The notes: a model not told the origin generated them from the sequence alone. A stretch of DNA of 64,000 nucleotides from an uncultured delta proteobacterium (GCA_963782055.1 CAWAIF010000003.1:6823948-6887947), one strand, 5' to 3'; shown: positions 3,757-50,300, counted from the stretch's first letter. Made by a program: numbers and translations.

Positions 3757-3757
3757 C

Positions 3758-5506: not shown

Positions 5507-5765
5507 GGCGAGGTCACCGACGGGTGAGGCGAAGATACCGGACACCGGTCCGCGGGAGGTCGCGGCGTTGTCGGCCCGCACACTGCGCATGCCAACCCGC
5601 ATGATTCTTTGCGGAGCCACATGTTCATGAGGGAGCGCGCCCACACCCGCCCACTAAAGTGCAATCCATCGACCGCCGTGCGTTGACAAGCTAGAGTTCC
5701 TCCCCCAGGCTGCTCGGGCGAGGAGGGAGCCATGAGCAAGCAAGCAAGCAAGCAAGCAAGCGCAA
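5263..5765. repeat. Direct repeat copy 2 of the rtcB 5'/promoter segment (partner of 3063..3560). The GCAA tract at its end is expanded to 6 units.
   Basis: Sequence alignment to 3063..3560. Confidence 0.8.
5736..5759 (+). repeat. Tetranucleotide microsatellite (GCAA)6. It lies immediately after an SD-preceded ATG (5732-5734) and upstream of an out-of-frame lipoprotein signal peptide.
   Basis: Seen directly. GGAGGgagccATGa then GCAAx6. The duplicated copy at 3538-3545 has only 2 units. Confidence 0.9.
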
Positions 5766-9073: not shown

Positions 9074-10093
9074 TCACCTCGGGAGACGCCACATCATACC
9101 AAAAGCGGCCATATAATGCTGGTTGTTTGCCCAATACACATATTCATCGTCCACGACCACTTCCGAGGCGGACTGGCCCGTGGCGAGAACCTGGCGGTCG
9201 CGGCACGTCGGCAGTGCGCACTTCTCCACCGTGGAGTCACCGAGCCCTCCCGTGGCCCAGTACATGGACGAGCCGTCGATCGCGAACGTCGCCCCTGTCG
9301 CGTCGAGCAAGACGGGCGGTCCGGCGCATCCGGTGAGGGGACACTTCTGGATGTCTCCGTTCGTCCAGTAGACGTCACCGCCGGCGACGACGATGGCGAT
9401 GATCTCCCGGTCCGTCGAAGCGAACGCCCTCGTCGTGCTCGCGCAATCGGATTTCTGACACGTCATCAGCGCGTCCGACGTGCCCCAGAAGAGGGAGTCC
9501 GCACCCATGGCGATCGCAAACGGGGAGGCCTGGCCGCCGGCGAGCAGGGTGGGCTGATTTCCGCAGCCTCCGATGTCACAGCGCATGACGGTGCCCTTCG
9601 TACGCTCCGTCCAGTAGACGCTGGCCGCGTCGACCACGATACGCTCCGGGGCGATGGAACCGGAGACGAGGGTGGTCGGCGTCGCGCAGCCGGCGAGGGA
9701 GCACTTCTCGATGGCCCCGGGCGCAGGTGGGAGGGGCGATCGGGACCAGTAGACGTTGGCGCCGTCGACGGCCAGGTCGGTCGGCGAATCCTCGGTTGCG
9801 ATCGTCTGAGGCTGGCAGTCATCCTTGGCGCAGGCGAAGACAGTGCCGCCGTACTCGATCCAGTGAAGACTGGTGGCGTCGACGACGAGCCGCGCCACCG
9901 AACCGGATGACGCCGAGGATGCGAGGTACGTCGGCGGCTGGAGGGACCAGCACTCGCCCTCCGCGCACGAAAGCCCGGCGGCACACGTGCCGCCCTCGAA
10001 ACAGGCTTCGCCCTGCTGTCCCGTGCTCGCCGGCTGCGCAGACTCGCCGCAGCCAGCGAGGAGCAGCGCGATCAGGATCCCTCGCGTCCCCAT
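9074..10093 (-). CDS. Lipoprotein with VYW / YWTD-like beta-propeller repeats. Intact paralog of 922..1779.
   Basis: MGTRGILIALLLAGCG signal with lipobox. Repeated ..SVYWT.. motifs. Full C-terminus ...YVYWANNQ. Confidence 0.7.
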   Translation of the reverse strand: MGTRGILIALLLAGCGESAQPASTGQQGEACFEGGTCAAGLSCAEGECWSLQPPTYLASSASSGSVARLVVDATSLHWIEYGGTVFACAKDDCQPQTIATEDSPTDLAVDGANVYWSRSPLPPAPGAIEKCSLAGCATPTTLVSGSIAPERIVVDAASVYWTERTKGTVMRCDIGGCGNQPTLLAGGQASPFAIAMGADSLFWGTSDALMTCQKSDCASTTRAFASTDREIIAIVVAGGDVYWTNGDIQKCPLTGCAGPPVLLDATGATFAIDGSSMYWATGGLGDSTVEKCALPTCRDRQVLATGQSASEVVVDDEYVYWANNQHYMAAFGMMWRLPR

Positions 10094-10225
10094 GAAGAGG
10101 GAGTGTACCGCCTTCAAGCGCGGTCTTCTACCGAGGCTTCGGCGGCGCGATTGCCGTCTGATGGACGTCAACCAATCTTGCAGGTGAGCGACGACAACTT
10201 GCAGGTCGGTGCACGGCTCCCAGAG

Positions 10226-24029: not shown

Positions 24030-24140
24030 GACGAAATGCTCCAAATCCCTCGAAGGGCGCGGGAAACTACGGGACGGAGTCTCGTCTGTCAAGGGAGGGG
24101 TGGCCCTCCTGGCTCGTGCTCTGGCCCATGCTCGCTCGCA

Positions 24141-24300
24141 CGCGGGCCGGCGGGCTGCGCAGGCGAGGCGTGCGCCGTCGCGCGCGCGAGCTTGCGCGTG
24201 GGCCCTGCGCGCGAGCCTCCTCACCTCGGCCATCGCTATCGCTCGGCCGGGGAGGACGATCGGCTGCCAGCTCTGCTCTCTGCAGTCTGAACGCATGGTC
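24141..24300. repeat. Dispersed GC-rich repeat element, copy A, with consensus ~GCGCGAGCTTGCGCG.GCCCTGCGCG...CCATCGCT.GCTCGG.CGGGGAGG
   Basis: Shares these blocks with 36395..36500 (same orientation) and 47170..47290 (reverse complement). Intergenic. Confidence 0.55.
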
Positions 24301-35959: not shown

Positions 35960-36322
35960 ATGTCCGAAAAGATGACCTTCCACGACTACATGCGCGCCTA
36001 CGGCGAGGACCACCAGAACAAGATCAACAAGGCGTGCCACATGATCGGCATCCCGCTGATCCTCGGCTCCCTGCCGGTGATCCCGGTCGCGCCGCCGGTG
36101 GGCCTGTCCATGTTCGGGGTCGGCTGGACGTTCCAGTTCGTGGGGCACTTCTTCGAGGGCAAGAAGCCGAGCTTCACGCGGGACGTGCGATACCTGCCGA
36201 TCGGCGCGGTGTGGGTGACGGTGGAGTGGGTGGAGCTGCTGACGGGGAAGCGGATCTACCGGGTGAGGGAGACGGCGAAGCACGCAGAGACGAACGGGGT
36301 GACGGCCGCGGCGACGGCCTAG
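35960..36322 (+). CDS. DUF962 (YGL010w-like) small membrane protein
   Basis: MSEKMTFHDYMRAYGEDHQNKINKACHMIGIPLI... HxxN(K/R) motif family, 120 aa. Confidence 0.62.
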   Translation: MSEKMTFHDYMRAYGEDHQNKINKACHMIGIPLILGSLPVIPVAPPVGLSMFGVGWTFQFVGHFFEGKKPSFTRDVRYLPIGAVWVTVEWVELLTGKRIYRVRETAKHAETNGVTAAATA

Positions 36323-36394
36323 CGGAGAAGGAGAGGAGGGGCCCCGCCCCGCCCATGCTCGGGCACGTGCTCGCTCGCGCGCGCGCCGGCCGGG

Positions 36395-36500
36395 TGGGCG
36401 TGATGGACGGGCGACGGCACGCACGCGAGCTTGCGCGCGAGCCCTGCGCGTGGGCGCCCTCCCCTCGCCCATCGCTCGCTGGCGCTCGCTCGGGCGGGGA
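36395..36500. repeat. Dispersed GC-rich repeat element, copy B (same family as 24141..24300)
   Basis: GCACGCGAGCTTGCGCGCGAGCCCTGCGCG...CCATCGCTCGCTGGCGCTCGCTCGGGCGGGGAGG. Intergenic. Confidence 0.55.
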
Positions 36501-36956
36501 GGGTTTTCGAAGCGCTGGTGGGCCCGGTTTCGTCGGAGGATGCGGCCCGGCTGCTACAGGCGACGAGGAACGCTCCGGCGCTTCGTGAAGACGGAGCGGA
36601 TGGAATAGTGCGGCGACGCGCGATCTTCGTGGGCGATCGAAGCTCGCGCTCGCGCCTGCGTTCCAATCCGCAGATGCAACTCGACACGATCGACGACTTC
36701 GCGCGAGACGCCCGCCGGCGAGTGCGGCGGGTGGTGTGCTTCTTCCACGCGGCGGCCGTCCTCGCGCTCGTCGCCGGCGCGTGGATCGACGCGCAGCCTC
36801 CGCGACCGCACCTCGATTGCCACACCTTCGTCGGTCAGACGTACTCGCACTACCCGCACCCGTACGGCCTGCCGCCGCCGGCGTCCTGGACGCGATGCGC
36901 CTGGCGGTGAGAAGGAGTCGCGGGATGCGCGGCGGCAGCTCGGCTAGACTGGCAGC

Positions 36957-37373
36957 ATGAGGATGGTCGGAGTGGTCGGCGTGAGCGCGGTGCTGCTCGT
37001 CGCGTGCGTGGGGCCGGCGGGGGTGCCGGCGCACTCGGGCGCGACGCAGGAGGCGAACCCGGGGGACGTGGCCAACGCGGCGGTCGTGGTCGGCGCGCGC
37101 GCGGCGACCGACAGGCAGGAGGTCCGCTTCGGCTGGGACGTGCGGCTGGACGACGAGCACGTGCAGTGGCGTGAATGCGTGACCGCGAAGGAGTGCGGGG
37201 GCGCGCTCCACACCGGCGCCGCGTCCCGGCTCCTCGGCGTCGAGACCGTAGGGACCGCGGACGTGGCCGACCCCGCCGGCAAGACGCAGCGCGTGGAGGT
37301 CAAGCGCATGCGCTTCCGGCCCCTCTCCGCCACGCGCGCGCTGCCGGCTCCTGCGGACGGCACCTCGCCTTGA
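36957..37373 (+). CDS. Small lipoprotein of unknown function
   Basis: MRMVGVVGVSAVLLVACVG lipobox. Modest coding bias. Confidence 0.42.
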   Translation: MRMVGVVGVSAVLLVACVGPAGVPAHSGATQEANPGDVANAAVVVGARAATDRQEVRFGWDVRLDDEHVQWRECVTAKECGGALHTGAASRLLGVETVGTADVADPAGKTQRVEVKRMRFRPLSATRALPAPADGTSP

Positions 37374-37496
37374 TGCGCGCGCTCACCGCCCACCGGCCCG
37401 CGCGCCTGCTCGGGCACGCGCGCGGCGTCGGGTACGGGGAGCCGGCGGTCTGTCACGCCCCTTGAGTTTCTCCGTCATCCCTGGCACGAGGCAGGC

Positions 37497-37886
37497 ATGA
37501 CGACCGACCTGTGGATGCTCGTCGCGAGCGCGGGGCTGTACTGGGCACTCATCTTCGCCGCCGCGACGCCTCGCATGTTCAAGAACGGCATTCCCTGGTC
37601 CCTGGGCAACCGTGACGCCGCGACCGTCGCCGTCCCGGCCTGGGCCGACCGAGCGCAGCGCGCGTGCAACAACATGCAGGAGAACCTGATCCTGCTCGTC
37701 GTGCTGGTGCTGGTCGCGCACGCCGCGAACCGCGCGAGCGAACGGACCGTGCTCGGCGCGGAGATCTTCTTCGGCGCCCGGATCGCGCACGCGGTCGTCT
37801 ACATCGCGGGGATCCCCGTCGTGCGCACGCTCGCGTGGGCGACCGGCGTCGCCGGGCTCGCCGTCATCGCCGCCGCGCTCGTGTGA
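37497..37886 (+). CDS. MAPEG-family (membrane-associated, microsomal-GST-like) membrane protein
   Basis: 129 aa, 4 TM. ..RAQRACNNMQENLILLVVLVLVAHA.. fits the MAPEG pattern. Confidence 0.6.
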   Translation: MTTDLWMLVASAGLYWALIFAAATPRMFKNGIPWSLGNRDAATVAVPAWADRAQRACNNMQENLILLVVLVLVAHAANRASERTVLGAEIFFGARIAHAVVYIAGIPVVRTLAWATGVAGLAVIAAALV

Positions 37887-38031
37887 CGCGCGCGCCGCCG
37901 CGCGAGGCTCGGGGTTCGCCCTCGGGGTGACGCGCTGACGACGGCGCGCCCGGTTCTGGCCATCCCCGGATCAGCGCGCGCGAACGACGATTGGGCGGGC
38001 ACCCGCCGGCAATCTCCGGCGACGAGAGTGC

Positions 38032-38409
38032 TCACCCCGTGCGCCGGCCGGCGCGGGGTCGGGCGCCCTCGGCCATGCGCGCGCGGAGCAGCTTTTTCAC
38101 CAGCGAGGTGGGCAGCGGCCGGTCCGGACCGAAGTGCAGCGCGCTCTTCGTCTTGTCGTAGACGGCGAGGTCGGCCGCGAGCGTGCGCAAGGTCGTCCCG
38201 CTGAAGGGGTAGTACGAGCAGCCCCTGGAGGTGGCGGAGAAGCCCGCGATGACCTTCCCCTCGTGGCGGAAGGCGGGCAGGCGGTAGCTGATGCACTCCT
38301 CCGCGTCCGGGACGAGGGCGCGGATGGTCTTGCGCAGCTCCTCGAGCAGCGCGCGGCTCTTCGGGGGCACGCCGGCGAGGTACGCGTCGATGGCGGGGTC
38401 TCGTTTCAT
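38032..38409 (-). CDS. DUF1801 (YdhG-like) domain protein
   Basis: 125 aa, MKRDPAIDAYLAGVPPKSRALLEELRKTIRALVPDAEECISYRLPAFRHEGKVIAGF... Confidence 0.68.
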   Translation of the reverse strand: MKRDPAIDAYLAGVPPKSRALLEELRKTIRALVPDAEECISYRLPAFRHEGKVIAGFSATSRGCSYYPFSGTTLRTLAADLAVYDKTKSALHFGPDRPLPTSLVKKLLRARMAEGARPRAGRRTG

Positions 38410-38438
38410 CGGGGCTCCGGGCGATTGGGCGGGTGACG

Positions 38439-39170
38439 TCAGAACGAGCGCATGACGCTCAGCTCGGGCATGTACGCGATGGCGCCTCCCCGGCCGAACG
38501 CGGCGGCGATCTTCAGCGGGGCGAGCATCATGCCGAGGTTTGCGTTCCCGAAGCGGATGCCGAGACCGGTGGTGACGAAGAAAGGCCCGGCGACGTCCCA
38601 CGCCTGCACCGGCTGGTGTCCGAGAACGTCGTCCTTCACCACGAGGGTGAGGTCGACCGGCGCGCCGAAATCGGCCATCCCGAAGCCGAAGAGGGCGTAG
38701 GGCCGAAAGGCGTAGCGGGTGCGCGTGAGCGGGTGCGCGCCGAGCACCCAGGTAACGCGTGCCTCCAACATGGAGTCGTTGAGCAATCCGTAGTCGGCGA
38801 CGTGGACGTTCTGGGGGTGGAAGTAGAAGCCGTACCGAACGCCGAGCAGGACGCCGTCGGTGAGCGCGACGTCGACCGCACCGACGGCGAAGTTGGCGAG
38901 TCCGCCGAGGCCCGGGCGGACGTCCGTCCCGCCCGACACGACGGAGCTCCGGGGGCTCGGGAAGACGGGGCCGCCGTCCTTCTCCGCGCACGTCCACGCT
39001 GCGCTCGCGCAGACGTTCGCACCGGATGGATGCAAGACGATGGTCAGCCCGTCGGAGAATCCGAGCCAGAAGCGGTGGAGCTTCACCGGCTTGTCGCCCG
39101 CGGCGAGTCCGGCCCGCGGGAGCGCCAGCAGCGCGAGCGAGACGGCGAACGCGGCCAGCTTGCGGTTCAC
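38439..39170 (-). CDS. Small outer-membrane beta-barrel protein. Its GTG start overlaps the RCC1 stop.
   Basis: Signal peptide VNRKLAAFAVSLALLALPRAGLA. Alternating beta-strand pattern. C-terminal aromatic ...YMPELSVMRSF. Paralog at 44349..45071. Confidence 0.6.
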   Translation of the reverse strand: MNRKLAAFAVSLALLALPRAGLAAGDKPVKLHRFWLGFSDGLTIVLHPSGANVCASAAWTCAEKDGGPVFPSPRSSVVSGGTDVRPGLGGLANFAVGAVDVALTDGVLLGVRYGFYFHPQNVHVADYGLLNDSMLEARVTWVLGAHPLTRTRYAFRPYALFGFGMADFGAPVDLTLVVKDDVLGHQPVQAWDVAGPFFVTTGLGIRFGNANLGMMLAPLKIAAAFGRGGAIAYMPELSVMRSF

Positions 39171-40390
39171 GGCAACCCCACGACGCGTGTCGGAACGTCG
39201 CGGTCGGCCGTCGTCCCGTCGCCGAGCTGGCCGTAGTCGTTCCATCCCCAGCAGTAGACATCGCCGGAGACGAGGAGCGCACACGAGAAGTCGTAGCCGG
39301 CGTGGAGGTCGACGATGCCGGAGAGCCGCCCATCGCCCGACGGAGAGACGACCGGGGTCGGCGTGAGGTGCTGGTCGGTCGTGCCGTCGCCGAGCTGGCC
39401 GTGGGTGTTCGCGCCCCAGCACACCGCCGTGCCGTCGGCGAGCCGGGCGCAGGAGTGGTAGTCGCCGAGCGCGAGTTGCACGGCATCCGTCAACCCCGCG
39501 ACTTTCACTGGCGTCGATCGGTCGGTGCCCTTCGTACCGTCGCCGACCTGGCCCTCGCTGTTCCAGCCCCAGCACCAGGCCGTCCCGCCCTCCACCAGCG
39601 CGCACGCGTGGACCAGTCCTACGAAGGCCTTCTGGACCTTCGTGCCCGGTGGCAGGAGGACCGCGGCGAGCGCCGGGTGATAGGCGGACGATTCCGCCCC
39701 GTTACCGAGGACCCCAGAGGTCTGGTGACCGCAGCAGTACACAGATGTGTCCCGGGTACCGCACAGGAACTGCTGGCCCAGCGCAACGCTATCGAGCGAC
39801 CCGAGGTCCGGGCGCGGCGCCGGCGTGGCCGGGTAGCCTGCGTCCGGATATGTCGGGTCGCAGTCTGGTGGATAGCCCCAGCAATAGAGGGCATGGTCGG
39901 CTCGACGCGCACACTCGAAGTCGCCGTGCGGCGAGGAAATAAGCGCGGTCGCGCCCTTGAGTACTGCAACACCGGGGGGCGTTTGCGGCTTGCCGGACCC
40001 ATCGCCCAGGCGCTGAAACTGGTCGTCGTATCCCCAGCAATCGACGGTTCCGTCGGCAAGCAGGATGCATTGACCTATGTAGTGCGCGCTGACCATGATG
40101 GGAACGCCGTTGGTCGGGACGGCCTGTGGCCTGGGGACTGCCAGCCAGCCGCCGTCACCACCCACTTCACCGTTGGGACTCCCCCCCCAGCATAGCAGGG
40201 TTCCCTCACGGCTCCGGTAGCAGGCATGACGACCGTCGGCGACCAGCAGCGGCGCGAAACCGCCTCCGTCGGAGGCATCGCTCACGTCCCGGCCGGCGTC
40301 GGCACGTTGCGGTACGCCAAGCCCGGTACGTGCGCCGCAACCCGCGAGCAAGATGATGAGAGACGCGTACTGAAGCGTCGGCGACGGCAT
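39167..40390 (-). CDS. RCC1-repeat (regulator of chromosome condensation-like beta-propeller) lipoprotein
   Basis: MPSPTLQYASLIILLAGCG lipobox. Repeated C.GWN..GQLGDG / HSCA..DG...CWG motifs, 6-7 blades. Confidence 0.75.
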   Translation of the reverse strand: MPSPTLQYASLIILLAGCGARTGLGVPQRADAGRDVSDASDGGGFAPLLVADGRHACYRSREGTLLCWGGSPNGEVGGDGGWLAVPRPQAVPTNGVPIMVSAHYIGQCILLADGTVDCWGYDDQFQRLGDGSGKPQTPPGVAVLKGATALISSPHGDFECARRADHALYCWGYPPDCDPTYPDAGYPATPAPRPDLGSLDSVALGQQFLCGTRDTSVYCCGHQTSGVLGNGAESSAYHPALAAVLLPPGTKVQKAFVGLVHACALVEGGTAWCWGWNSEGQVGDGTKGTDRSTPVKVAGLTDAVQLALGDYHSCARLADGTAVCWGANTHGQLGDGTTDQHLTPTPVVSPSGDGRLSGIVDLHAGYDFSCALLVSGDVYCWGWNDYGQLGDGTTADRDVPTRVVGLP

Positions 40391-40401
40391 TCGTGAGCTC
40401 G

Positions 40402-41733
40402 TCAGTGGCACGCGCCGTCCACGCAGGTCTGCCCAGACCCACAGCATGCCCCATCGACGACACACGACGCCGGGCAGCAATCCTGAGCGCCACCTGGTAG
40501 CGTCATGCACGGTCCGCCGCAGCAGTGTCCCCCGCAAAGCCGTGCGCCGCCGTTGCCGCCGGAGATCGTGATGTTGCAGCACGTCTGGTCGGTGGTCGCG
40601 CAGACGGAACCAGGGAAGCAGCACTCGCCGCCGCACTGTGTCGCGGCGGCTGGACAGGTGCAGGTCCCGTCCGGGTTGCAGACATTTCCGCCCGTGCAGC
40701 ACGTCGTCGTCCCGTTCGCCGGGTTGGGACACACGTCCGCCGGGCCGCAGCACGTGTCGGTCTTCGCGTCGCAGGGCTGACCCTCCGGGCAGCACACCGT
40801 TCCGCCATTGCACGCCCGGTCGTTGGGGCAGCAGGTGCTGTCCGCCTCCGAGGTGCACGTTTCGGTGCCGCTATCGCAGCAGTTCTGGTTGCAGCTCGTC
40901 GTACCGCCCGGACAGCAAAGATGCTGCGCTTCGCTCGAGCATGTCGAGCCGTAGTCGCAACAGAAGTGGCCTTGACCCTCGACGCCGCACGGAACGGGGC
41001 AGCAGCCGAACTGGTTCCCGAGCTCGTTGCACTGGTCGTTGCAAACGTTGTCGGCGAGCACCGCGGCGACGATGACGACCGCGAGGCAGACAGCGAGCGG
41101 AATGCCGAAGAACTGTCCGTCCCAGACGGCCGCGCAGGTGACCAATCCCAAGAATACCGCCAAGGAGGCGCCCACCGTGCACTGCAGGTGGCAATTCCGG
41201 CAATTCTCCCCATCCTGCGGGTACTCCGGCTGCGCGGGAACCGACGACACTGACGAACCGTCAGCCGCCACGCACGTGCCCGACGACAGCACCTCCTGCA
41301 AGTGCTTGTAGGTGTCCAGGATGTGCTGCGACGCAGGTGCCACCCCCGCGTCGAAGGGCGTCCCGTCGGCGAAGTGCACCGTGCTCGCGTCGGCGTCCTT
41401 CGGAAAGGGCGCGAGCGGCTTGCCGTCGACGTCGCCGGTGACGACGGTGTCGCCGCGGAGCAGGTGGATGACGTGCTGCTCCTGCCCGCTGTACGCCGGG
41501 CCCTGCTTCACCGTCTCGCTCCAGCCCTGCGGGGTGGAGACGGCGGTCGCGTCGAACGCCAGCGACCCGTCGACGACGAGCCGCATCTCGGTCGACGTGG
41601 GCGACATGTCCATGTCGAGCTCGTTCGCGCCGTCGGTGACGGTGCGATGCCAGCCGCCATCGCTGGCCGTCGCGGTACACAGCGGCACCGAGGAGGACGG
41701 CGAATCGCTCGAGCAGCTGAGGACGCCGAGCAC
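40402..41733 (-). CDS. Membrane-anchored protein with an extremely Cys-rich C-terminal domain (CC/CCP/CCG clusters, ~60 Cys in 200 aa). The functional start is probably the ATG at 41806 beyond a pentanucleotide SSR.
   Basis: Upstream of the GTG at 41733 the main frame encodes ..PRARSVLAASGALLVLGVLSC (signal/lipobox-like) with no start codon. Two internal hydrophobic helices, then a C-rich tail. Confidence 0.62.
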   Translation of the reverse strand: MLGVLSCSSDSPSSSVPLCTATASDGGWHRTVTDGANELDMDMSPTSTEMRLVVDGSLAFDATAVSTPQGWSETVKQGPAYSGQEQHVIHLLRGDTVVTGDVDGKPLAPFPKDADASTVHFADGTPFDAGVAPASQHILDTYKHLQEVLSSGTCVAADGSSVSSVPAQPEYPQDGENCRNCHLQCTVGASLAVFLGLVTCAAVWDGQFFGIPLAVCLAVVIVAAVLADNVCNDQCNELGNQFGCCPVPCGVEGQGHFCCDYGSTCSSEAQHLCCPGGTTSCNQNCCDSGTETCTSEADSTCCPNDRACNGGTVCCPEGQPCDAKTDTCCGPADVCPNPANGTTTCCTGGNVCNPDGTCTCPAAATQCGGECCFPGSVCATTDQTCCNITISGGNGGARLCGGHCCGGPCMTLPGGAQDCCPASCVVDGACCGSGQTCVDGACH

Positions 41734-41770
41734 GAGGAGCGCTCCGGATGCAGCTAGGACACTACGGGCA

Positions 41771-41800
41771 CGAGGCGAGGCGAGGCGAGGCGAGGCGAGG
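41771..41800 (-). repeat. Pentanucleotide microsatellite (CGAGG)6 on the plus strand, (CCTCG)6 on the coding strand. It lies directly after ATGTCG (ATG 41806..41804), and the ATG is out of frame with the downstream signal peptide. A G9/C9 homopolymer lies 25-33 nt upstream, at 41830-41838.
   Basis: Seen directly. Copy number is confirmed by two independent track translations (MSPRLASPRLASCP, DVASPRLASPRLVPVVS). A main-frame TGA overlaps the ATG. Confidence 0.9.
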
Positions 41801-42271
41801 CGACATCACGTTTCCCCTTTCGTGACACGCCCCCCCCCGGTGGCGACGCGTGAACGCCATCCTCGGCCTGTCCACCTCCGAAGACAAGGCACGAAGGCAA
41901 GCCATCAAAGAATGAGTAGGAGGTCGTCGCACACGCGCGCGCTCCTGCCGAACTGGTGTCCGCGCCGTCCGCGCCACCACGCCCCGGCCTCGCGGCGCGG
42001 GATGGACCGCAGCTCATTCCATTGTAATGATCGACGGATGGCCCTCGGTCGACACCTGCAGCTCGCCGCGACTGCCGCGTTCCTCGTGGGGTGTGGCGGG
42101 ATCGTCGCCGCGCCTCCCGATGCCGGTGCAGGCGCCGCCGCGCGAGGCTCGGGGTTCGCCCTCGGGGTGACGCGCTGACGACGGCGCGCCCGGTTCTGGC
42201 CATCCCCGGATCAGCGCGCGCGAACGACGATCGGGCGGGCACCCGCCGGCAATCTCCGGCGACGAGAGTGC

Positions 42272-42649
42272 TCACCCCGTGCGCCGGCCGGCGCGGGGTC
42301 GGGCGCCCTCGGCCATGCGCGCGCGGAGCAGCTTCTTCACCAGCGAGGTGGGCAGCGGCCGGTCCGGACCGAAGTGCAGCGCGCTCTTCGTCTTGTCGTA
42401 GACGGCGAGGTCGGCCGCGAGCGTGCGCAAGGTCGTCCCGCTGAAGGGGTAGTACGAGCAGCCCCTGGAGGTGGCGGAGAAGCCCGCGATGACCTTCCCC
42501 TCGTGGCGGAAGGCGGGCAGGCGGTAGCTGATGCACTCCTCCGCGTCGGGGACGAGGGCGCGGATGGTCTTGCGCAGCTCCTCGAGCAGCGCGCGGCTCT
42601 TCGGGGGCACGCCGGCGAGGTACGCGTCGATGCCGGGGTCACGTTTCAT
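42272..42649 (-). CDS. DUF1801 (YdhG-like) domain protein, near-identical second copy
   Basis: Translation identical or nearly identical to 38032..38409. Confidence 0.68.
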   Translation of the reverse strand: MKRDPGIDAYLAGVPPKSRALLEELRKTIRALVPDAEECISYRLPAFRHEGKVIAGFSATSRGCSYYPFSGTTLRTLAADLAVYDKTKSALHFGPDRPLPTSLVKKLLRARMAEGARPRAGRRTG

Positions 42650-42786
42650 CTGAGCGTCTCCTCCTCGAGGCGCCGGCGCTCGGGGCCCATCACGGCGCGC
42701 TGACGGGCTCGGCCGAAGCAGCTGTCAGCCGCACCGGATCGTACGCGATGACCACCTGCCTGGCGTTCCACGTTTTCCACGTTTCA

Positions 42787-42851
42787 ATTTCCCGAACGGG
42801 AAATTTCCGTTTGCCAGGACTCATCGGGGAGCTACGTTTCCCGAACGGGAA
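42787..42851. promoter_or_regulatory. Two palindromic operator-like sites: ATTTCCCGAACGGGAAAT at 42787-42804 and TTTCCCGAACGGGAAA at 42836-42851. The proximal site ends 5 nt before the hipB-like ATG at 42856.
   Basis: Seen directly. Perfect inverted repeats TTTCCCG-AA-CGGGAAA. The arrangement parallels the 3701..3756 sites. Confidence 0.5.
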
Positions 42852-42855
42852 AATC

Positions 42856-43113
42856 ATGGCGGAACGGACCAAGAGCGAACCAGACTTCCCGAGCGGGATC
42901 ATTCGAACGCCGAAGGACATCGGCGCGTGGGTGCGCCGCGCGCGGAGGGCGAGCGGGAAGACGCTCGCGGAGGCCGCCGCGCTCACCGGCGTCGGGGTGC
43001 GCTTCCTCCACGAGCTGGAGCACGGCAAGGAGACCGCGTCCCTCGGCAAGGCGCTCCTGGTGCTCCACCGCATGGGACTCGTGCTCGCGATCCGCGAACG
43101 GCGCGCGCGATGA
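42856..43113 (+). CDS. hipB: HipB-like XRE-family HTH antitoxin candidate
   Basis: 85 aa, ..IGAWVRRARRASGKTLAEAAALTGVGVRFLHELEHGK.. Its stop overlaps the hipA ATG (ATGA). Confidence 0.7.
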   Translation: MAERTKSEPDFPSGIIRTPKDIGAWVRRARRASGKTLAEAAALTGVGVRFLHELEHGKETASLGKALLVLHRMGLVLAIRERRAR

Positions 43114-44346
43114 CGCGCAGGCTGGTCGTCGTCCACGGGCTGCGACGCGTCGGTCACCTCGAACCGAGCGACGACCGCATGACGTTCGCGTACGACCCGG
43201 CATGGGTCGCCTCTCCGGACGCCTTCGCGATCTCCGCTCAGCCTGCCGCTGGACGGGAACTTCGATGCGACGCGCGCCACGCGGTTCTTCGCGAACCTCC
43301 TGCCCGAGGCGAACGTACGGACGCTCATCTGCCGCCGTCTCGGGCTCTCCGGGTCGAACGACTTCGGCCTCCTCGCCGCCATTGGTGGGGAATGCGCGGG
43401 AGCGCTCTCCATCCTTCCGGAGGGCGTCGACCCGGCGGAGCACGCGAACGAGTACGAGGAGCTGGACCGGGCGAGGCTCGAACAGCTGGCCACGAGCTAC
43501 GAGGCGCTGCCCATCGTCGACGGGTCCGGCCGCGCCCGGCTCTCCCTCGCCGGCGCGCAGGACAAGCTGCCCGTGAGGATGGACGGCGATCGCATTCTCT
43601 TGCCGATCGGCAACTCGCCGAGCTCGCACATCCTCAAGCTCCCCAACCGCAACTACAAGCATCTGCCGGCGAACGAGGCGCTCGTCATGGAGCTGGCGCG
43701 GCAGGTGAAGCTTCCAGTCGTGGCGACGACGTGGCGTGCCCTCGGAGAGGAGGGGATGTGCATCGTGGAGCGCTACGACCGCGTGGTCCGGGGCGGCGAG
43801 CTCCGTCGCGTGCACCAGGAGGACTTCTGCCAGGCCATGGGCCTCTCCTTCAGCACGAAGTACGAGGAGGAGGGCGGCCCGTCCTTCGCGAGCTGCGTCG
43901 AGCTGGTACGCGAGCACTCGGTCGTGCCGCTCGCCGACGTCGACGCGCTCCTCGGCTGGCTCGCCTTCGACGCGATCGCCGCCAACGCGGACGGTCACGG
44001 CAAGAACCTGTCGCTGCTCCTCGGAGGAGGGCCGAGGCTCGCTCCCTTCTACGATCTGGTCTGTACGCGAGCCTACGAAGGTCTCGACCGGCGCCTGGCG
44101 ATGAGCATCGGCGACGAGCGCGACCCGGATCGGCTGCGGCCCGAGCACCTCGACGATTGCGCCGCCGCGCTCGACGTGAAGCCGTGGCTCCTCCGCGCGA
44201 CGTTCGAGCGGATGGCGGACTCGATCCTCCAGCGGCTCGACGCCACGGTCGAGGCCGCCGGGGTGGGTGAGTCGCCCGCCGTACGACGCACCGTGCCGCT
44301 CGTGCGGAAGCAGGCGAAGCGCTGGCTTCGAGAGCTGGGCGGGTGA
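43110..44346 (+). pseudogene. hipA: HipA-family Ser/Thr kinase toxin gene with a +1 frameshift at ~43233-43237. The N-terminus is in one frame and the rest of the protein (from ISLSLPL) is in the next.
   Basis: Frame A reads MTRRLVVVHGLRRVGHLEPSDDRMTFAYDPAWVASPDAFAIS. Frame B reads LSLPLDGNFDATRATRFFANLLPE...IGGECAGALSI...DGHGKNLSLLLGG..FYDLV to 44346. One extra nucleotide in atcTCCGctc. Confidence 0.7.
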
Positions 44347-44348
44347 CG

Positions 44349-45071
44349 TCAGAACGCGCGCATGAAGGTCAGCTCGGGCATGTACGCGATGGCGCCTCCC
44401 GAGCCGAACGCGGCGGCGATCTTGAGCGGCGCCACCATGAAGCCGTAGCGATCGTTGCCGAATCGAAGACCCAGGCCGGTCGTGACGTAGAAGGGCCCGG
44501 CGACCTTCCACGCCTGCACGGGTTGCTGTCCGTAGACATCGTCCTTCACCACGAGCGTCATGTCGACCGGGGCGCCGAAGTCGGCCATCCCGAAGCCGAA
44601 GAGCACGTAGGGGCGGAAGCCGAAGGCGGTCTGCGTGAGCGGATGCGAGCCGAGCACCCAGGTCGCACGCGCCTCCCACATGATGTTGGTGATTGGGAAG
44701 TTGGTGACGTGGACGCTCCCCCAGTCGAAGTAGAGGCCCCAGCGGAGGCCGAGCAAGACGCCGTCGGTTGGCGCGAGGTCGAGCTCGCCCATGAAAATGC
44801 CGGCGGGCCCGCCGAAGCCCGGGCTCACCTTGGCCGCGCCCGACACCACCGAGCTCTGCGCGTTCGGGAAGACCGGGCCGTTCGCTTCCGCGCAAATCCA
44901 CTCGGTGCTCGCGCAGACGTTCGCACCCGACGGGTGGAAGACGGTGGTGAACCCGAGGGAGACGCCGAACCAGACGCGGCGGGGCTTCGTCCGCTTGCTG
45001 CCGGCGGCGAGTCCGGCCCGCGGGAGCGCCAGCAGCGCGAGCGAGACGGCGAGCGCCGCGATCGTGCGCAT
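44349..45071 (-). CDS. Small outer-membrane beta-barrel protein, paralog of 38439..39170
   Basis: MRTIAALAVSLALLALPRAGLA signal. ~70% aa identity to the paralog. C-terminal ..YMPELTFMRAF. Confidence 0.6.
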   Translation of the reverse strand: MRTIAALAVSLALLALPRAGLAAGSKRTKPRRVWFGVSLGFTTVFHPSGANVCASTEWICAEANGPVFPNAQSSVVSGAAKVSPGFGGPAGIFMGELDLAPTDGVLLGLRWGLYFDWGSVHVTNFPITNIMWEARATWVLGSHPLTQTAFGFRPYVLFGFGMADFGAPVDMTLVVKDDVYGQQPVQAWKVAGPFYVTTGLGLRFGNDRYGFMVAPLKIAAAFGSGGAIAYMPELTFMRAF

Positions 45072-45150
45072 CACGGCAACCCCACGACGCGGGTCGGGAC
45101 GTGCCGGTCGCTCGTCGTCCCGTCGCCGAGCTGGCCGTAGTCGTTCCATC
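45071..45150 (-). pseudogene. Remnant of the RCC1 lipoprotein gene (last ~26 codons only, WNDYGQLGDGTTSDRHVPTRVVGLP)
   Basis: Matches the C-terminus of 39167..40390. Upstream sequence is unrelated, so this is a deletion after duplication. Confidence 0.55.
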
Positions 45151-45344
45151 CCTGCGCCCCCGTCCTCCTGCCGCCGCACCCCAGGAGGATGACGCCGACC
45201 AGCGAGCCCACGAGGACCACCCCCCGAGAGGGATCGCCCCAGCGACTGAAGACTACCACGTCCGATCACGGCACCGACCACGCGCGACTCAGCCCCGCCC
45301 GGGCGAGCGCCCCAGAGCCGCCACAACCGCGCTATCCTCCACCC

Positions 45345-45971
45345 GTGCGCGCCGAGCCGCCGAACCAGTGGGTCGCCATCGACCAGAGCGGCCGGATCGC
45401 CCTCTTCTGCGGCTCCCCGGACGCGGCGGTCCCGCGCGCGGCGCGCCCCGTGGACCTGAACGTCGCGGGCATCCTGCTCCCCGACCCGGACGAAGCCCGC
45501 TCCTACCGCGCGCCGGCGTCCGGCCCGAGCACCTTCGACGACGTGGGCGCCGAGCACGCTCTTTCCCTCGACACGCTGGAGCGCCTCGGCGCGGCGGGCA
45601 TCTTCGTCTACGAGGCGCGCGGTGAGGGCGCCGCGTACCCGTACCGTCGCGTCCTCCGCCCCTTCCGCGCGGCGCACGTCGACGCCGCTTCAACGCGGAT
45701 GCGGGCGCTCGCCACGGCGGTGGTGCTGCCGCGCTCCTTCGACGACGCACCGGAGATCCAGCCGCTCGAGCTCGTCCCGTGCGACGCGCGGGCGCGCGAG
45801 TACGTGGCAGAGGGAGACACGCGCAGGCTCCCCATCCTCCACGGGCGCCCGCCGCCACCCGAGCGCGGCCCGCTCGGCTTCCGGTGGCCGCCGGGGACGA
45901 GCTCCTTCTTGCTCGCGGCGATCATCATCGCGGCCGTTCTCGTCTTCGTCGTGCAGTTCAATCCGCACTGA
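45345..45971 (+). CDS. Hypothetical protein with a C-terminal transmembrane helix
   Basis: Strong third-position GC bias. C-terminal ..SSFLLAAIIIAAVLVFVVQFNPH. No recognisable family. Start at GTG VRAEPPNQW is uncertain. Confidence 0.4.
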   Translation: MRAEPPNQWVAIDQSGRIALFCGSPDAAVPRAARPVDLNVAGILLPDPDEARSYRAPASGPSTFDDVGAEHALSLDTLERLGAAGIFVYEARGEGAAYPYRRVLRPFRAAHVDAASTRMRALATAVVLPRSFDDAPEIQPLELVPCDARAREYVAEGDTRRLPILHGRPPPPERGPLGFRWPPGTSSFLLAAIIIAAVLVFVVQFNPH

Positions 45972-45978
45972 CGCGCCC

Positions 45979-46788
45979 ATGGTCGCGGGAGAGGCCCCCC
46001 CTACCCTCTCGCCTGTGACCTCACCAGGCACACCGCTCGTCGACTTCGGCCGCGCCGCGCGCGACTACGCGCGCCACCGCCCCGGCTTCCCGCCGGCCTT
46101 CTTCGACCACGTCGCCCACCTCGGCATCGGCGCGCCCGGCCAGCGCATCCTGGATCTCGGCACGGGCACCGGCACCCTCGCGCGCGGCTTCGCGGAGCGC
46201 GGCTGCGACGCGGTCGGCCTGGATCCCTCGGAGGAGCTGCTCGCCCAGGCCGCGACCCTCGCCGCGGAGCAACACCTGTCCGTCCGCTGGGTGCGCGGGT
46301 GGGCGGAGTCGACCGGCCTGCCTGACGCCGACTTCGACGTCGTCTGCGCGGGCCAGTGCTGGCACTGGTTCCACGGCCTGCGCGCCGCCACGGAGGCGCG
46401 CCGGCTCCTGCGCGCGGGCGGCCGCGTCCTCATCGCCTACTTCAGCTACCTCCCGCTGCCCGGCACCCTCGCGGAGGCCACCGAGCAGATCATCCTCCGC
46501 CACAACCCGGGCTGGGACTGGGCCGGCCACGACGGCCGCCACCCCCGCTTCGCCGACAACCTCGTCCGCGCCGGCCTCGCGGCGCCCGCCACCTTCGACT
46601 TCGTGCTCCCCATCGCCTTCACCCACGAGGACTGGCGCGGCCGCTTCCGCGCCCACGCCGCCGTCCTGACCCTGCCGCCCGAGAAGGTCGCCGCCTTCGA
46701 CGCCGACCTCGCCCGCCTCCTCGCCGACCGCTTCCCCGAGCCGCTGATGGTCGACCACCGCCTCTTCGGCATCGTCGCCCGGAAGTAG
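45979..46788 (+). CDS. Class I SAM-dependent methyltransferase
   Basis: Motif I ILDLGTGTGTLARGFAERG. Post-I acidic DPSEELL. 269 aa. Confidence 0.75.
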   Translation: MVAGEAPPTLSPVTSPGTPLVDFGRAARDYARHRPGFPPAFFDHVAHLGIGAPGQRILDLGTGTGTLARGFAERGCDAVGLDPSEELLAQAATLAAEQHLSVRWVRGWAESTGLPDADFDVVCAGQCWHWFHGLRAATEARRLLRAGGRVLIAYFSYLPLPGTLAEATEQIILRHNPGWDWAGHDGRHPRFADNLVRAGLAAPATFDFVLPIAFTHEDWRGRFRAHAAVLTLPPEKVAAFDADLARLLADRFPEPLMVDHRLFGIVARK

Positions 46789-46959
46789 AGCGCCCGCCCA
46801 CCGTCCACCTCCACGACCAGCCGCTCACTCAGCGCCACGAAGTCCACGACATAGCTCCCGCCCAGCACGTGCTGCCGCCGAAACTTCACCCCGCACACCC
46901 CGCAGCGCCCGCCAGAGCATCTCCTCCGACCGCGTCGCGTCAGCCCCCCGCATCCGTCG

Positions 46960-47300
46960 AGCATGGTGATGGAGGAAGAAGAGCGAGGGAGCTTCGTGCG
47001 AGGCCATGCCCCCCATGCCGGAAGAAGCGTGACGGCCGCAGTGAGGACTTCACCTCGGACAGCCGGAGGGCCGGCGCGATTCTTCCGGCCCCGGCGTGGC
47101 CTCGCACGAAGCTCCCTCGCGCCACGCCCGCCCCCGTCTCTCGAGATGAGTGGGAGGGGGGCCCAGTCCACCCCGCCGAGGCCGGCCCAGTGCACGACAC
47201 CATCCTCCCCGCCCGAGCGAGCGCGAGCGAGCGATGGGCGAGGGGAGGAGGCTCGCGCGCAGGGCTCGCCAGAGCCCGAGCACGAGCCAGGCGGGGCCTC
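46960..47300. repeat. Dispersed GC-rich palindromic element, copy C. It contains a long hairpin (22-bp perfect arms GAGGGAGCTTCGTGCGAGGCCA / TGGCCTCGCACGAAGCTCCCTC ~90 bp apart, with nested inverted repeats) and a reverse-complement copy of the 24141/36395 consensus at 47200..47290.
   Basis: Seen directly. Intergenic between the methyltransferase gene and bamA. The same motif set recurs at two other intergenic sites. Confidence 0.6.
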
Positions 47301-47310
47301 CCTCCTCCTC

Positions 47311-50300
47311 CTAAAACAACCCGATCGCAAAATTCAGCGCGCCGATGTCCTCGAACGGCTGCTTCGTCAGGTTGAACCCGTAATCCAGCGCGATCGCCCC
47401 CACCGGCGTGTCCACCCGGATCCCCGACCCCGCCGCCACCCGCAGCGTCAGCGAGTGATCGAACGGGTACGTCGGATCGCCCCACAGGTTCCCCGCGTCG
47501 ACGAACACCACGGTGTGCAGCGGCCCCATCACCGGGATGCGCACCTCCACGCGCGGGTTGAACATCAGGTTGCCGCCGTTGACCGCGACGTTGGTCGGCT
47601 GCAGCGTGCCGCCCGACGCGTTGATGGTGTCGACGGCGTCCTGCGGGATGACGGTGTCCTGCGTGTATGACCGCATGGAGTCGAAGCCGCCCATGAAGAA
47701 CTCGCGGTCGGGGTAGGTCACCGAGTTGGTGGTCACCTGCGCGACCTCCCCCATCCGCAGCGTGGCCGCCAGGATGACGCCCTTGTAGATGGGGATGTAG
47801 CCGGACAGCGTCTGCGTCAGCCGCACGAAGTGCCCCTCGCTGGTGTTGCCGGAGCCCAGCGGGAAGGCGTCGTCGTGCTCCACGCCCACCACCGCGAGCG
47901 TGCCCTTGTGCGCGTCGAAGGAGTTGTCGCGGCAATCCCACGTGGCGACCACCCGCTCGGAGAAGAGCGCCGACTCGCCGCTGGGCACGCGCAGGAGCTG
48001 GTCGCAGAAGATGTTGCCCTGGCAGTGCGACGCCGGGTCGTCCACGCCCTGGAAGACGTGCAGGTTGTTGTATTCTGCACTGACCGAGAAGGCGAACAGG
48101 AGCTGCCGCTCCGGGCGGTAGTAGGCCGTCGGGATGAGCGCCGCCTTCCCGATGGTGAAGTACGGCTCCAGCGTGCGCGCGTAGAGGGCGTCCACGTTGC
48201 CGCGCACCAGCGGGCCCAGGCCGACCTCCGGGAAGCCCACGCTCAGGGTGACGTTGCCCGCCAGGCGCTCCGAGATGCTGAGCGGCTTGAAGTTCTGCGC
48301 GATGAGCGGGTCGGTGATGAGAAAGTCCGGCAGGTAGGAGACCTGCGCGCGGAAGGACAGCGCGATGGCGTCGCCGAAGACGTTCTTGTGGCCGTACTCG
48401 AAGGCGCCGCGCACGCCCTGCCCGGTGGCGAAGCCCGCCCGGAACTCGATGTACTGCGGCAGCGACTCCTGCACCGTGATGACCACCGTCTTGTCGCGCT
48501 GCGGGACCTGCGGGTTCTGCAGGGCGACGTTCACGCTGGAGAAGACGCCGAGGGTCGCCACGCGCTCCTGCGTCTTGCGCACGTCGCTCGTCCGGTACGG
48601 CTGCCCCACGGTGAGGGCGATGCGGCGGCGGATGACGTTCTCGTCGGTGTGCCGGTTCCCCCGCACCAGGATCTGCTGGACGATGACGCGGTCGCCCTCG
48701 GTGATGTCGAAGCGCACCCGCGCCTGCGTGGAGTCGAGCGACTTCTCGATCGCGAACTTCACGTCGGCGTAGAAGTAGCCCTCCTCCTTGTACAGGTCGA
48801 CGATGCGGCGGCGCGCCTCGTCCACCTTGGCCGCGCTGAGCGGGCCGCCCATGTCCAGCGCGGCCGCGTCGGCGATGCGCTTCTCGGTGATGGAGCGCGC
48901 GCCGTAGAACACCACGTCGCGCAGGAAGGTGCGCGGCCCCAGCTTGATCGGGATGCGCAGGCGCACCACAGGCTCGCAGGTGACGCCGTGCGCCCTGTCG
49001 GGCGTGCAGGTCCACGACTGCGGCAAGGGCGGCACCGGCCGCGGCAGACCCTGCCTGTCGTAGACGCACGCGTCGGCGGGCGTGCCCTTGCGCGGCAGCG
49101 GCGCGCACGTCCCGGGCGGCGAGTCGGGAGAGCAGGTGCGCCGGATGACCTGCACCGGCCCCACCGTGGCCGAGAGGAACCCCTCGCTCCGATAGAGCTC
49201 TTGCACGTGCGCCGCGGCGCGGTCGTAGGTGTCCGGCACGTAGGTGCGGTCGGGGTCGAGATCGATGGGCACCGCCGGACGCCCCGCCGGCGTCACGCGA
49301 GAGCCGGAGGTGTGGGAGAAGAGGGAGTCGACCAGGCGCGGGTCCGGGCTGACGACCAGGTCGGCGCCGGGGAGCTCCTCGTCCAGGAAGCTGTCGATCT
49401 CGTTGCCGATCTGCGAGGCGGAGCGCGGCCCGCCGCCGCGCAGGTCCTTGATCTCGTCGGCCGCGACGCACGGGTAGGTGCGCGCGGCGACCACCACCCG
49501 CTCGCCCTCCTGGACGTGGAAGACCAGCGTGCGCGCGTGGTCCGCCGGGCGACCGCGGACCTCCACCTTCACCTCGGCGTCGAGGAAGCCGCGCAGCACG
49601 TAGAAGCGCCGCAGCTTGTCCGCCAGGTGCTGCAGCCCGAGGTCTGTCTCGGCGTCGACGCCCAGCGCGGAGGAGAGGGCGTCGGCGTCGTAGTGCTCGT
49701 TGCCATCGAAGCTCAGGGCGAAGCGGGCGCCGGTGTCGACGCGCACGCGCAGCGTGACCAGCCCGGAGGCGAGCACCACGTCGTGGGAGACGCGCGCGTC
49801 GTACCATCCGCCCGCGCGCAGGCGCGTCTCCAGGTCCGTGTCGGCGGCGTCGAGCGCCGTCTCGTCGGCGCGGTCGCCCTTGTCCACATGGTACGCGCGC
49901 GTGTAGCGGTCGAGGTCCTCCGCCCTGGCGCCGAAGGAGTAAAAGACACGGCGCGCGAGGACGCGGGCCGGGCCCGGCTGCACGTCCAGCAGCGCGATGA
50001 CCCGCGTCGGCTTGTCCGTCGCCCGGGTGGCGAGGTCGGCGTGCGCCTGCGGGAAGCCGCGCCGGGCGAGCAGCGCCTCGATGCGTCGCTCGCGCACCTC
50101 CAGGTCGTTGCCTATCAGCTCGCCGCCCTCGCTCAGGCCCGCCTCGCGCAGGATGTCGTCCCGCTCGACGGGCACGTCGTGCAGGTCCACCTTCAGCGAC
50201 TCGATGAGGCGCCGCGGTACGGCGTGCACGCGCAGCTTCACGCCGCTGCCGTAGGGCTCCACCGTCACGTGCGCGGTGCCGTACAGGCCGCTCTCCATCG

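Follow-up and report, generated by a model that had tools for sequence, protein, structure and literature searches.

Mosaic identity in a duplicated myxobacterial block points to a probable recent conversion of a DUF1801 gene and loss of hipBA from one copy

Introduction

Bacterial paralogs are well known to undergo gene conversion and concerted evolution, examples being rRNA operons, the tuf genes and the PE/PPE and other repeat loci of Mycobacterium tuberculosis (PMC6053082, PMC8022953, PMC12046097, PMC13061034). Here a locally duplicated block of an uncultured delta proteobacterium is described, the two copies of which are nearly identical in one part and strongly diverged in the next. The block is situated in a stretch of 64,000 nucleotides (GCA_963782055.1, CAWAIF010000003.1:6823948-6887947), which is called the window in this report and from whose first letter all positions are counted. 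It comprises a DUF1801 gene, a gene for a candidate outer-membrane protein (OMP) and the 3' end of a gene for an RCC1-repeat lipoprotein. A hipBA toxin-antitoxin module is present in copy 2 only, between the DUF1801 and OMP genes.

Decay and loss of chromosomal toxin-antitoxin modules are a general pattern. The identity pattern, the synonymous divergence (dS) values, the OMP tree, a hipA remnant and a hipA frameshift observed at this locus are probably to be read as a recent gene conversion on top of an old duplication, with hipBA lost from the lineage of copy 1. From these observations we infer the order of events, the mechanism of recombination and the direction of the conversion.

Results

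A near-identical tract adjoins a diverged segment

Comparison of the region with itself by BLASTN gave two homology segments, which are collinear and in direct orientation. The first one pairs 37892-38410 (copy 1) with 42132-42650 (copy 2). It is 519 nt long and 99.04% identical, with five mismatches (37992, 38095, 38308, 38393 and 38401) and no gaps. In either copy this tract consists of a 140-nt 3' flank, the DUF1801 gene and one further nucleotide, so that a single base follows the start codon of that gene. In copy 1 the tract begins 5 nt past the stop codon of a MAPEG gene (37497-37886, plus strand). DUF1801-1 (38032-38409) and DUF1801-2 (42272-42649) are both located on the minus strand and encode 125 residues each, with A6G in copy 2 relative to copy 1 as the single difference between the proteins. 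DUF1801-1 is assigned by Pfam PF08818 (YdhG-like) with E = 4.5e-11 and a score of 43.4 bits, the gathering cut-off being 27.2.

The second segment pairs 38426-39248 with 44336-45152 and has a DNA identity of 80.9% over 828 columns with 15 gap openings. It includes the OMP genes, the products of which are 68-71% identical, and the last 26 codons of the RCC1 gene (39167-39248), the only part of that gene that is duplicated. The identity drops from 99.0% to 80.9% across an indel of 15 nt in copy 1 and 1685 nt in copy 2. These 1685 nt correspond to hipBA and its promoter region.

At the rate of the neighboring part of the block, five or fewer differences in 519 nt are expected with a probability of 4e-40. 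The 140-nt non-coding flank contains a single difference (P = 2e-18), and synonymous differences amount to 3 of 100 sites in DUF1801 compared to 51 of 185 in the OMP genes (Fisher P = 6e-8). Since the non-coding flank and the synonymous sites are homogenised as well, constraint at the protein level is ruled out as the cause.

An earlier note on this DNA had proposed a mosaic of two blocks with unequal identity. This is borne out by the values of 99.04% and 80.9%, and the identity comparison recommended there showed that the divergence is not uniform once the blocks are properly aligned. The near-identical part had been put at about 520 bp, in good agreement with the 519 nt and five mismatches found, and had been described as the DUF1801 gene plus its upstream region; the gene is indeed included, but the homogenised flank is the 140 nt downstream of it, and none of the sequence upstream of the gene is part of the tract. 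The DNA identity of the OMP genes had been overestimated at about 85% (actual value 81%), whereas the figure of about 70% for the proteins was appropriate. Copy 2 retains the last 26 RCC1 codons, as had been recognized, together with the stop codon (45071-45152, minus strand).

Two inverted sequences flanking DUF1801 (37893-37924 and 38477-38508) were considered as a palindrome pair and rejected, as their complementarity of 72-78% over 32 nt is matched by dozens of pairs in the region.

The identity of the tract appears younger than the duplication

Divergence was estimated by the Nei-Gojobori method. A reference from outside the chromosome is a contig of 976 bp (L005), which was assembled from run SRR21285581 and belongs to a related organism. 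Its order is RCC1 tail, OMP, a 117-nt spacer and the DUF1801 start; the DUF1801 part comprises 36 nt, so the trees cover OMP and not DUF1801. For the DUF1801 pair dS is 0.031 and the nonsynonymous divergence (dN) 0.004. The corresponding values are 0.34 and 0.21 for OMP1 and OMP2, and 0.17 and 0.08 for OMP1 and its L005 ortholog. Between OMP2 and L005, dS is 0.38. The DUF1801 paralogs are closer to each other (0.03) than the neighboring OMP orthologs (0.17), a comparison made across genes given the 36 nt of the L005 DUF1801 ortholog.

The neighbor-joining tree of OMP has the topology (OMP2,(OMP1,L005)) with P0004 outside, and OMP2 has the longest branch. This topology indicates that the OMP duplication predates the split from the L005 organism. 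Judged by dS, the DUF1801 identity appears several-fold younger than that split. The recent homogenisation on top of an older duplication, which the earlier note had suggested, is supported by these dS values and by the position of OMP2 outside OMP1 and L005 in the phylogeny that the note had called for.

Copy 1 runs directly into the intact RCC1 lipoprotein gene (39167-40390, minus strand, 407 residues; Pfam RCC1, RCC1_2 and WD40_RLD) and on to a gene for a Cys-rich protein of no assigned family (40402-41733, minus strand). This arrangement argues for copy 1 being in the ancestral context and copy 2 being derived. On a contig of a Myxococcales metagenome-assembled genome (L003), homologs of the Cys-rich (36% identity), RCC1 (52-67%) and OMP (46%) proteins are encoded in the same order as in the window. 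L003 additionally has a lipoprotein-like open reading frame (ORF) of 119 residues between RCC1 and OMP (4262-4621 of that contig), which has no counterpart in the window or in L005.

Remnants of hipA point to a loss of hipBA

The restriction of hipBA to copy 2 had been noticed before and was confirmed, with hipB at 42856-43113 and hipA at 43110-44346 (both plus strand). L005 is without hipBA. Behind the OMP stop codon, L005 continues with TGACGTCACCCGCCCAGCCCTCGGATCCAGCG. The adjoining part of its OMP-DUF1801 spacer, CGCTGGATCCGAGGGCTGGGCGGGTGA, reads RWIRGLGG* in the hipA frame (CGC TGG ATC CGA GGG CTG GGC GGG TGA). The hipA gene of copy 2 ends with CGC TGG CTT CGA GAG CTG GGC GGG TGA, i.e. 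RWLRELGG*. In 14 HipA homologs from other contexts the C-terminus follows the pattern RKQARRx[LI]RE/DL plus 0-7 variable residues; RRW[LM]REL is found in the four closest ones. As the L005 tail encodes this conserved C-terminus, it is a real remnant of the hipA 3' end. Close hipBA homologs are found in unrelated neighborhoods (L006, L007, L011 and L012), and the L005 tail is therefore not a generic sequence downstream of OMP genes. Such scattered contexts further show that the module is mobile over long time scales; the polarity at this locus is still that of a loss.

The remnant comprises about 27 nt in L005 and 13 nt in copy 1 (tTGGGCGGGTGA cg, 38426-38438, plus strand), where the old-divergence homology begins (38426/44336). 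The 16 nt immediately upstream of the DUF1801 start are common to copy 1 and L005. The copy 1 spacer (38411-38425) has a homologous counterpart in L005 and none in copy 2; on the minus strand it reads ATCGCCCGGAGCCCCG, compared to ATCGCCCGGAGCCGCG in L005. Copy 1 resembles the L005 spacer shortened by about 85 nt, and there is a TG microhomology where the ends meet. The L005 spacer also contains 24 nt that match hipB operator 1 and copy-2-specific flanking sequence with 20 identities and one gap, in the proper order and orientation. Its score was reached in 8 of 2000 shuffles with the promoter region as target and in 15 of 500 with the whole module, so that an operator remnant in this spacer is suggestive only. 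The simplest account of these sequences is that hipBA is ancestral and would have been deleted from the lineage of copy 1.

The earlier note had placed the hipA stop within sequence homologous to copy 1, and the strings quoted for it, tTGGGCGGGTGACGTCAGAAC in copy 1 and cTGGGCGGGTGACGTCAGAAC in copy 2, are correct. It had also considered a precise deletion of hipBA from copy 1. The loss is supported by RWIRGLGG* in L005, but it was not precise, as 13 nt and about 27 nt remain in copy 1 and L005, respectively.

A palindrome, TGACGTCA, had been reported at both junctions of the module. It occurs three times in the window and twice in this region, once per copy and on the OMP side only, and it is also found in L005. 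It represents two convergent stop codons: the TGA of hipA is followed, after two bases, by TCA, which is the stop of OMP on the opposite strand. The sequence belongs to the conserved region downstream of OMP and is not a junction marker. No sign of a recombination site at TGACGTCA was obtained in the tests applied.

Copy 2 has an intact hipB and a frameshifted hipA

The hipB gene encodes a helix-turn-helix antitoxin of 85 residues (Pfam HTH_3 and HTH_31) and its reading frame is intact. It also matches TIGR03070 (couple_hipB) with E = 2e-12, below the curated cut-off. The hipB stop codon overlaps the ATG of hipA at 43110 (ATGA), which suggests translational coupling to the toxin gene. In hipA, residues 1-42 are in one frame and the remainder is in another. 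Compared to TCG in L006 and L007, copy 2 has TCCG, and the one extra C at 43234/43235 causes a +1 frameshift in the sequence as assembled. From the same contig, the protein collection searched contains only the 257-residue C-terminal product P0017.

After correction of the frame, HipA has 411 residues and matches the Couple_hipA and HipA_C families of Pfam (PF13657 at 3.5e-24 and PF07804 at 2.6e-47). It aligns to E. coli HipA (3tpd) with E = 3e-42, and AGAQDK, DGHGKN and FYD coincide with the corresponding motifs. The closest homolog is P0013 (79% identity). The frameshift is predicted to disable the HipA toxin, and the gene is regarded as a pseudogene.

The intergenic region between the divergent DUF1801-2 and hipB genes (42651-42855) contains the palindrome TTTCCCGAACGGGAAA at 42788-42803 and 42837-42852, 49 nt apart. 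Four matches (two sites on both strands) compare to 0.16 expected. Paired palindromes upstream of hipB are also present in L006 (260-330) and L007 (1140-1210), with a spacing of 45-52 nt. The two TTTCCCGAACGGGAAA sites are probably operators of HipB. In the subfamily the palindrome takes the form TTTCCCGA(N)CGGGAAA; the second one ends a few bases before the hipB ATG, and the arrangement is kept in unrelated contexts.

The OMP and RCC1 part of the block

OMP1 (38439-39170, 243 residues) and its diverged paralog OMP2 (44349-45071, 240 residues) are encoded on the minus strand by intact ORFs. Both proteins have a signal-like N-terminus and a C-terminal Phe. The OMP2 stop codon is 2 nt away from that of hipA, and the two genes are convergent. 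No Pfam or NCBIfam model matches the OMP proteins. An AlphaFold model based on an alignment of ten sequences is all-beta with a pLDDT of 68.5, and its best neighbors in the PDB according to Foldseek are Ail, OprF-N, OmpA, NspA, OmpX and Pla, with E-values of about 1e-4 and TM-scores of 0.3-0.67. In combination with the N-terminus and the final Phe, an assignment of OMP1 and OMP2 as small outer-membrane beta-barrels is reasonable but not proven. The family is tiny, with ten proteins at E <= 1e-3 among 5.8 billion; the relatives from L001, L002, L004 and L008-L010 (46-64% identity) are not syntenic. OMP1 starts with a GTG that overlaps the RCC1 stop. The ATG shared by OMP2 and L005 (MRTIAAL...) is lost in OMP1, where it is now AAC, and the upstream GTG is used instead (MNRKLAAF...).

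In the RCC1 gene of copy 1, Pfam detects RCC1_2 at 7.9e-40 and RCC1 at 8e-36, with four stretches each. The 26 codons of the copy 2 tail correspond to less than one blade, and their stop overlaps the OMP2 start. In an ORF of 62 codons (45071-45259, minus strand), this tail is preceded by a lipoprotein-like signal (VILLGCGG), and the overlap of its stop with the OMP2 start is retained. The ORF may have arisen by chance, or it may be a small remnant that is still expressed and maintains translational coupling of OMP2.

Three proposals for the edges of copy 2 were rejected. An internal deletion of a copy 2 RCC1 gene, by which an ILLGCGG-type signal would have been fused to the last blade, is at odds with the score of 25 for the right flank against the RCC1 5' region, the shuffle mean being 24.7. 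Inverted repeats that bracket copy 2 (lipobox-coding sequences at 42076-42100 and ~45170-45195) reach a score of 29, equal to the maximum of 100 shuffles, and the likeness of these two sequences is treated as convergence of codon usage and lipobox. For an insertion of copy 2 into a lipoprotein gene no evidence of a split gene was found: third-position GC periodicity is lacking in 41740-42130 and strong in the ORF at 45189-45971.

A second patch was probably exchanged between the copies

In a three-way alignment of the old block (copy 1, copy 2 and L005), copy 2 is the odd one out at 130 sites, copy 1 at 38 and L005 at 34. The ~150 nt after the block edge (39100-39249 and 45004-45153) contain no site private to copy 2, compared to about 28 expected (P = 4e-14). 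This patch includes a run of 49 nt in the OMP signal peptide (39100-39148 and 45004-45052) which is identical between the copies and from which L005 differs at ten sites. Together with the DUF1801 tract the patch indicates that the copies exchanged sequence more than once. The mosaic has at least one patch beyond those of the earlier note, and hipA is frameshifted.

Setting of the block and neighboring sequences

The window has a G+C content of 70.6% and its proteins are recorded on one contig of 7,003,164 bp. The closest relatives of the genes studied are from Myxococcales, Polyangiaceae and metagenome bins labeled 'delta proteobacterium'. The host of the duplication is a GC-rich myxobacterial chromosome. 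The gene map is based on ORFs, Pfam matches and third-position GC. Between the Cys-rich gene and copy 2 there is a non-coding stretch (41734-42131), which contains a run of six GGCGA pentanucleotides (~41775-41805) upstream of the Cys-rich gene and just left of copy 2. On the other side of copy 2, an unrelated gene (45189-45971) and an ORF with a SAM methyltransferase domain in its C-terminal part (45622-46788) are located on the plus strand.

A repeated GC-rich intergenic element of ~150-180 nt is present at 24091-24237 (plus), 36328-36510 (plus) and 47150-47312 (minus) and includes a hairpin (CCCCTCGCCC...GGGCGGGGAGG). Of its three copies, the second and third are mutually inverted, have a 66-nt core of 92% complementarity and flank the whole region of 36.4-47.3 kb with both blocks. 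A 28-nt inverted repeat (46983-47120; 96% complementary, 82-nt loop) adjoins this element. An Rfam scan of 36000-47500 gave no match to a structured RNA. The scan for promoters and terminators showed nothing above background; a lone hairpin inside DUF1801 was duplicated along with the gene.

Several local duplications of differing ages are present within the window. A second HipA-family gene (3758-5020, plus strand; Pfam HipA_C at 5e-28) is located between direct repeats of 482 nt (3067-3548 and 5269-5746), which are 92.5% identical. The repeat at 5269-5746 holds a 5' fragment of RtcB of about 80 codons (ORF 5174-5644, minus strand), and the full RtcB gene is found at 1901-3304 (minus strand). 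The region 3067-5746 is another local duplication with a gene fragment left beside a hipA module. Furthermore, the stretches 874-1751 and 9183-10065 have an identity of 88.8% over 885 nt; they correspond to two paralogous genes for Cys-rich lipoproteins, each read on the minus strand (ORFs 922-1893 and 9074-10171).

Discussion

Proposed history of the block

The ancestral locus, read on the minus strand, would have had the order Cys-rich gene, RCC1 lipoprotein gene, OMP gene, a convergent hipA-hipB pair and DUF1801. Before the host lineage and the L005 organism split, a block of about 3 kb including hipBA, from RCC1 codon 382 to a point 140 nt beyond DUF1801, would have been copied in direct orientation, 2.9 kb along. 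The copies would then have diverged to about 81% DNA identity, with OMP2 evolving fastest (dN/dS of about 0.6). A single deletion of hipBA would have taken place in the ancestor shared by copy 1 and the L005 locus. Copy 1 may have lost a further ~85 nt afterwards and kept 13 nt, while L005 kept ~27 nt and possibly one operator. Copy 2 would have kept the module, and its hipA would have gained the +1 frameshift. Most recently, non-reciprocal homologous recombination (gene conversion) would have copied DUF1801 and its 3' flank across, by which ~500 nt were reset to 99%. A separate patch of ~150 nt with the RCC1 tail and the OMP signal peptide was presumably also exchanged at some point. The right end of the tract would be at or just before the DUF1801 start codon, because the sequences upstream of it are unrelated between the copies.

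Several observations weigh against this history. The first 100 nt of the tract are perfectly identical and abut the left end of all homology (37892/42132), and a search of the 400 nt to the left of either tract copy gave no detectable homology; past the right end of the block no weak homology was found either. Ordinary two-ended conversion predicts anchoring homology on both sides and leaves this flush end without explanation. On the right side, flanking homology is limited to 18 nt with two mismatches, and in the 50-137 nt upstream of the DUF1801 start copy 2 has no similarity to copy 1 or L005, the latter being compared in both orientations. A DUF1801 gene that existed in copy 2 before the conversion is suggested by position, orientation and these 18 nt with their two mismatches. 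In addition, copy 2 equals L005 over 88 nt in the RCC1 tail and the first OMP codons, where copy 1 has 13 private changes that are not predicted by a simple history. The loss of the OMP1 ATG is among these changes. Seven of them cluster within 20 nt around the OMP start (39141-39190 compared to L005 and 45051-45100), and no donor for the 13 changes was found inside the window.

The two mismatches nearest to the DUF1801 start codon (38393 and 38401) are private to copy 2, as copy 1 equals L005 at both. A tract that ends near 38392 and is followed by old homology would account for this. For the flush left end there are two possible explanations: homology to the left was lost later from one copy, or the event was anchored at the 5' side of the gene and completed by an illegitimate join.

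Alternative explanations

The 519-nt segment could have been copied recently into a copy 2 locus free of DUF1801, by non-homologous or one-ended (homology-facilitated illegitimate) recombination, in which case the old duplication would have comprised only RCC1 tail, OMP and hipBA. We consider such an insertion unlikely. It is consistent with a tract flush with unrelated sequence on its left, with a right end one base past the start codon and with a copy 2 sequence upstream of that codon in which no homology to copy 1 or L005 is detectable. However, with respect to the OMP/hipA side the segment is placed and oriented just as it is in copy 1 and L005, which for a random insertion in 7 Mb would be a large coincidence, and two of the five mismatches are in the last 17 nt before the break, as if old homology persisted there. 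Little credence is given to a patchwork maintained by repeated short conversions in DUF1801 and the OMP start and signal peptide, with the OMP barrel kept apart by diversifying selection (dN/dS of about 0.6) as in a two-allele surface protein, or else to the flush tract being the product of one-ended, homology-facilitated illegitimate recombination. Strong purifying selection on DUF1801 alone is virtually untenable: the family is well conserved, with hundreds of homologs at 70-80% identity, but the counts at synonymous (3 of ~100) and non-coding sites (1 difference in 140 nt) refute it.

The segment could in principle have been collapsed or copied by the assembler, or homogenised by mis-mapped reads during polishing, and the single extra C in a CC pair of hipA could be a sequencing indel. 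Exact look-ups of the window's proteins gave no recorded gene position. The tracts differ at five sites, though, and their flanks differ on both sides; the neighboring OMP genes are genuinely distinct with both ORFs intact, and a contig of 7.0 Mb suggests an assembly from long reads, by which a repeat of 0.5 kb can be spanned. Polishing would also not erase a divergence of 19% over exactly one gene and its flank. An artefact is therefore very unlikely. It is likewise very improbable that the whole block was duplicated recently and that one OMP region was replaced by a foreign diverged allele, with the DUF1801 genes left in their original state. The long branch of OMP2, for which no closer relative was found in the collections searched, and the identity of the copy 2 RCC1 tail with L005, which hints at exchange between lineages, would suit this replacement. 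On the other hand, hipBA is in copy 2, and the deleted state and the DUF1801-proximal spacer are common to copy 1 and L005. The shared deletion and spacer place the separation of the copies before copy 1 and L005 split (dS 0.17) and long before the DUF1801 genes became alike (dS 0.03), and independent deletions plus an import would require more events. For an insertion of hipBA into copy 2 after the duplication, with copy 1 and L005 as the empty site, the close homologs in many unrelated contexts could be cited, as they show a module that is mobile on evolutionary time scales. But the supposedly empty sites keep in-frame hipA 3' sequence with the conserved C-terminal motif, which is not expected by chance, and this insertion is highly improbable. 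Recent gene conversion on an old duplication, with loss of hipBA from the copy 1 lineage, is preferred as the probable history.

Comparison with known systems

The block provides a worked example of how local duplicates evolve in large GC-rich myxobacterial genomes. Within one block, old divergence is combined with at least two conversion patches that differ in age, and a gene fragment remains at the edge. The toxin-antitoxin module is seen in three states, namely as intact antitoxin with frameshifted toxin, as a scar of ~27 nt and as a scar of 13 nt. The identity of the DUF1801 paralogs would mislead dating or orthology calls, and the hipA call of the source is a truncated fragment.

The locus is a new instance of paralog conversion and toxin-antitoxin decay and involves no new mechanism or system. 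As in bacterial paralog conversion, a bounded tract is far more alike than the rest of the block, synonymous and non-coding sites included; tracts of differing ages form a mosaic, and within the tract the paralogs may also be more alike than orthologs are, judged by a dS of 0.03 compared to 0.17 for the OMP orthologs next to it. In contrast to the known cases, DUF1801 is an ordinary small gene for which no dosage argument is evident, and the tract is short (~0.5 kb) with one end flush with the end of all homology. OMP1 and OMP2 resemble small outer-membrane barrels (OmpA N-domain, OmpX, Ail, NspA and OprF-N) in the signal-like N-terminus, the all-beta prediction and the C-terminal Phe. They differ from them in the lack of a Pfam or NCBIfam match, the number of relatives (ten only), the middling confidence of the model and the low TM-scores.

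The module corresponds to HipBA systems (E. coli HipA, 3tpd and 3dnt; Shewanella HipA, 4pu3) in a helix-turn-helix antitoxin gene whose end overlaps (ATGA) a gene for a kinase with both Couple_hipA and HipA_C domains, and in the paired palindromic putative operators upstream of hipB. Motifs aligning to the P-loop (AGAQxK), the catalytic loop (DGHxKN) and the Mg-binding Asp (FYD) of E. coli HipA are retained. Unlike in E. coli HipBA, the toxin frame is broken by an insertion of 1 nt and the operator sequence (TTTCCCGAACGGGAAA) is different. Unlike in other HipBA systems, the module is missing from the sister locus except for a scar of 13 nt. Toxin-antitoxin decay in general is matched by the inactivated toxin beside a kept antitoxin and by the deletion of the module at the paralogous and orthologous sites. 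In contrast to its usual course, both outcomes are found side by side in one duplicated block, with a third state in a related organism.

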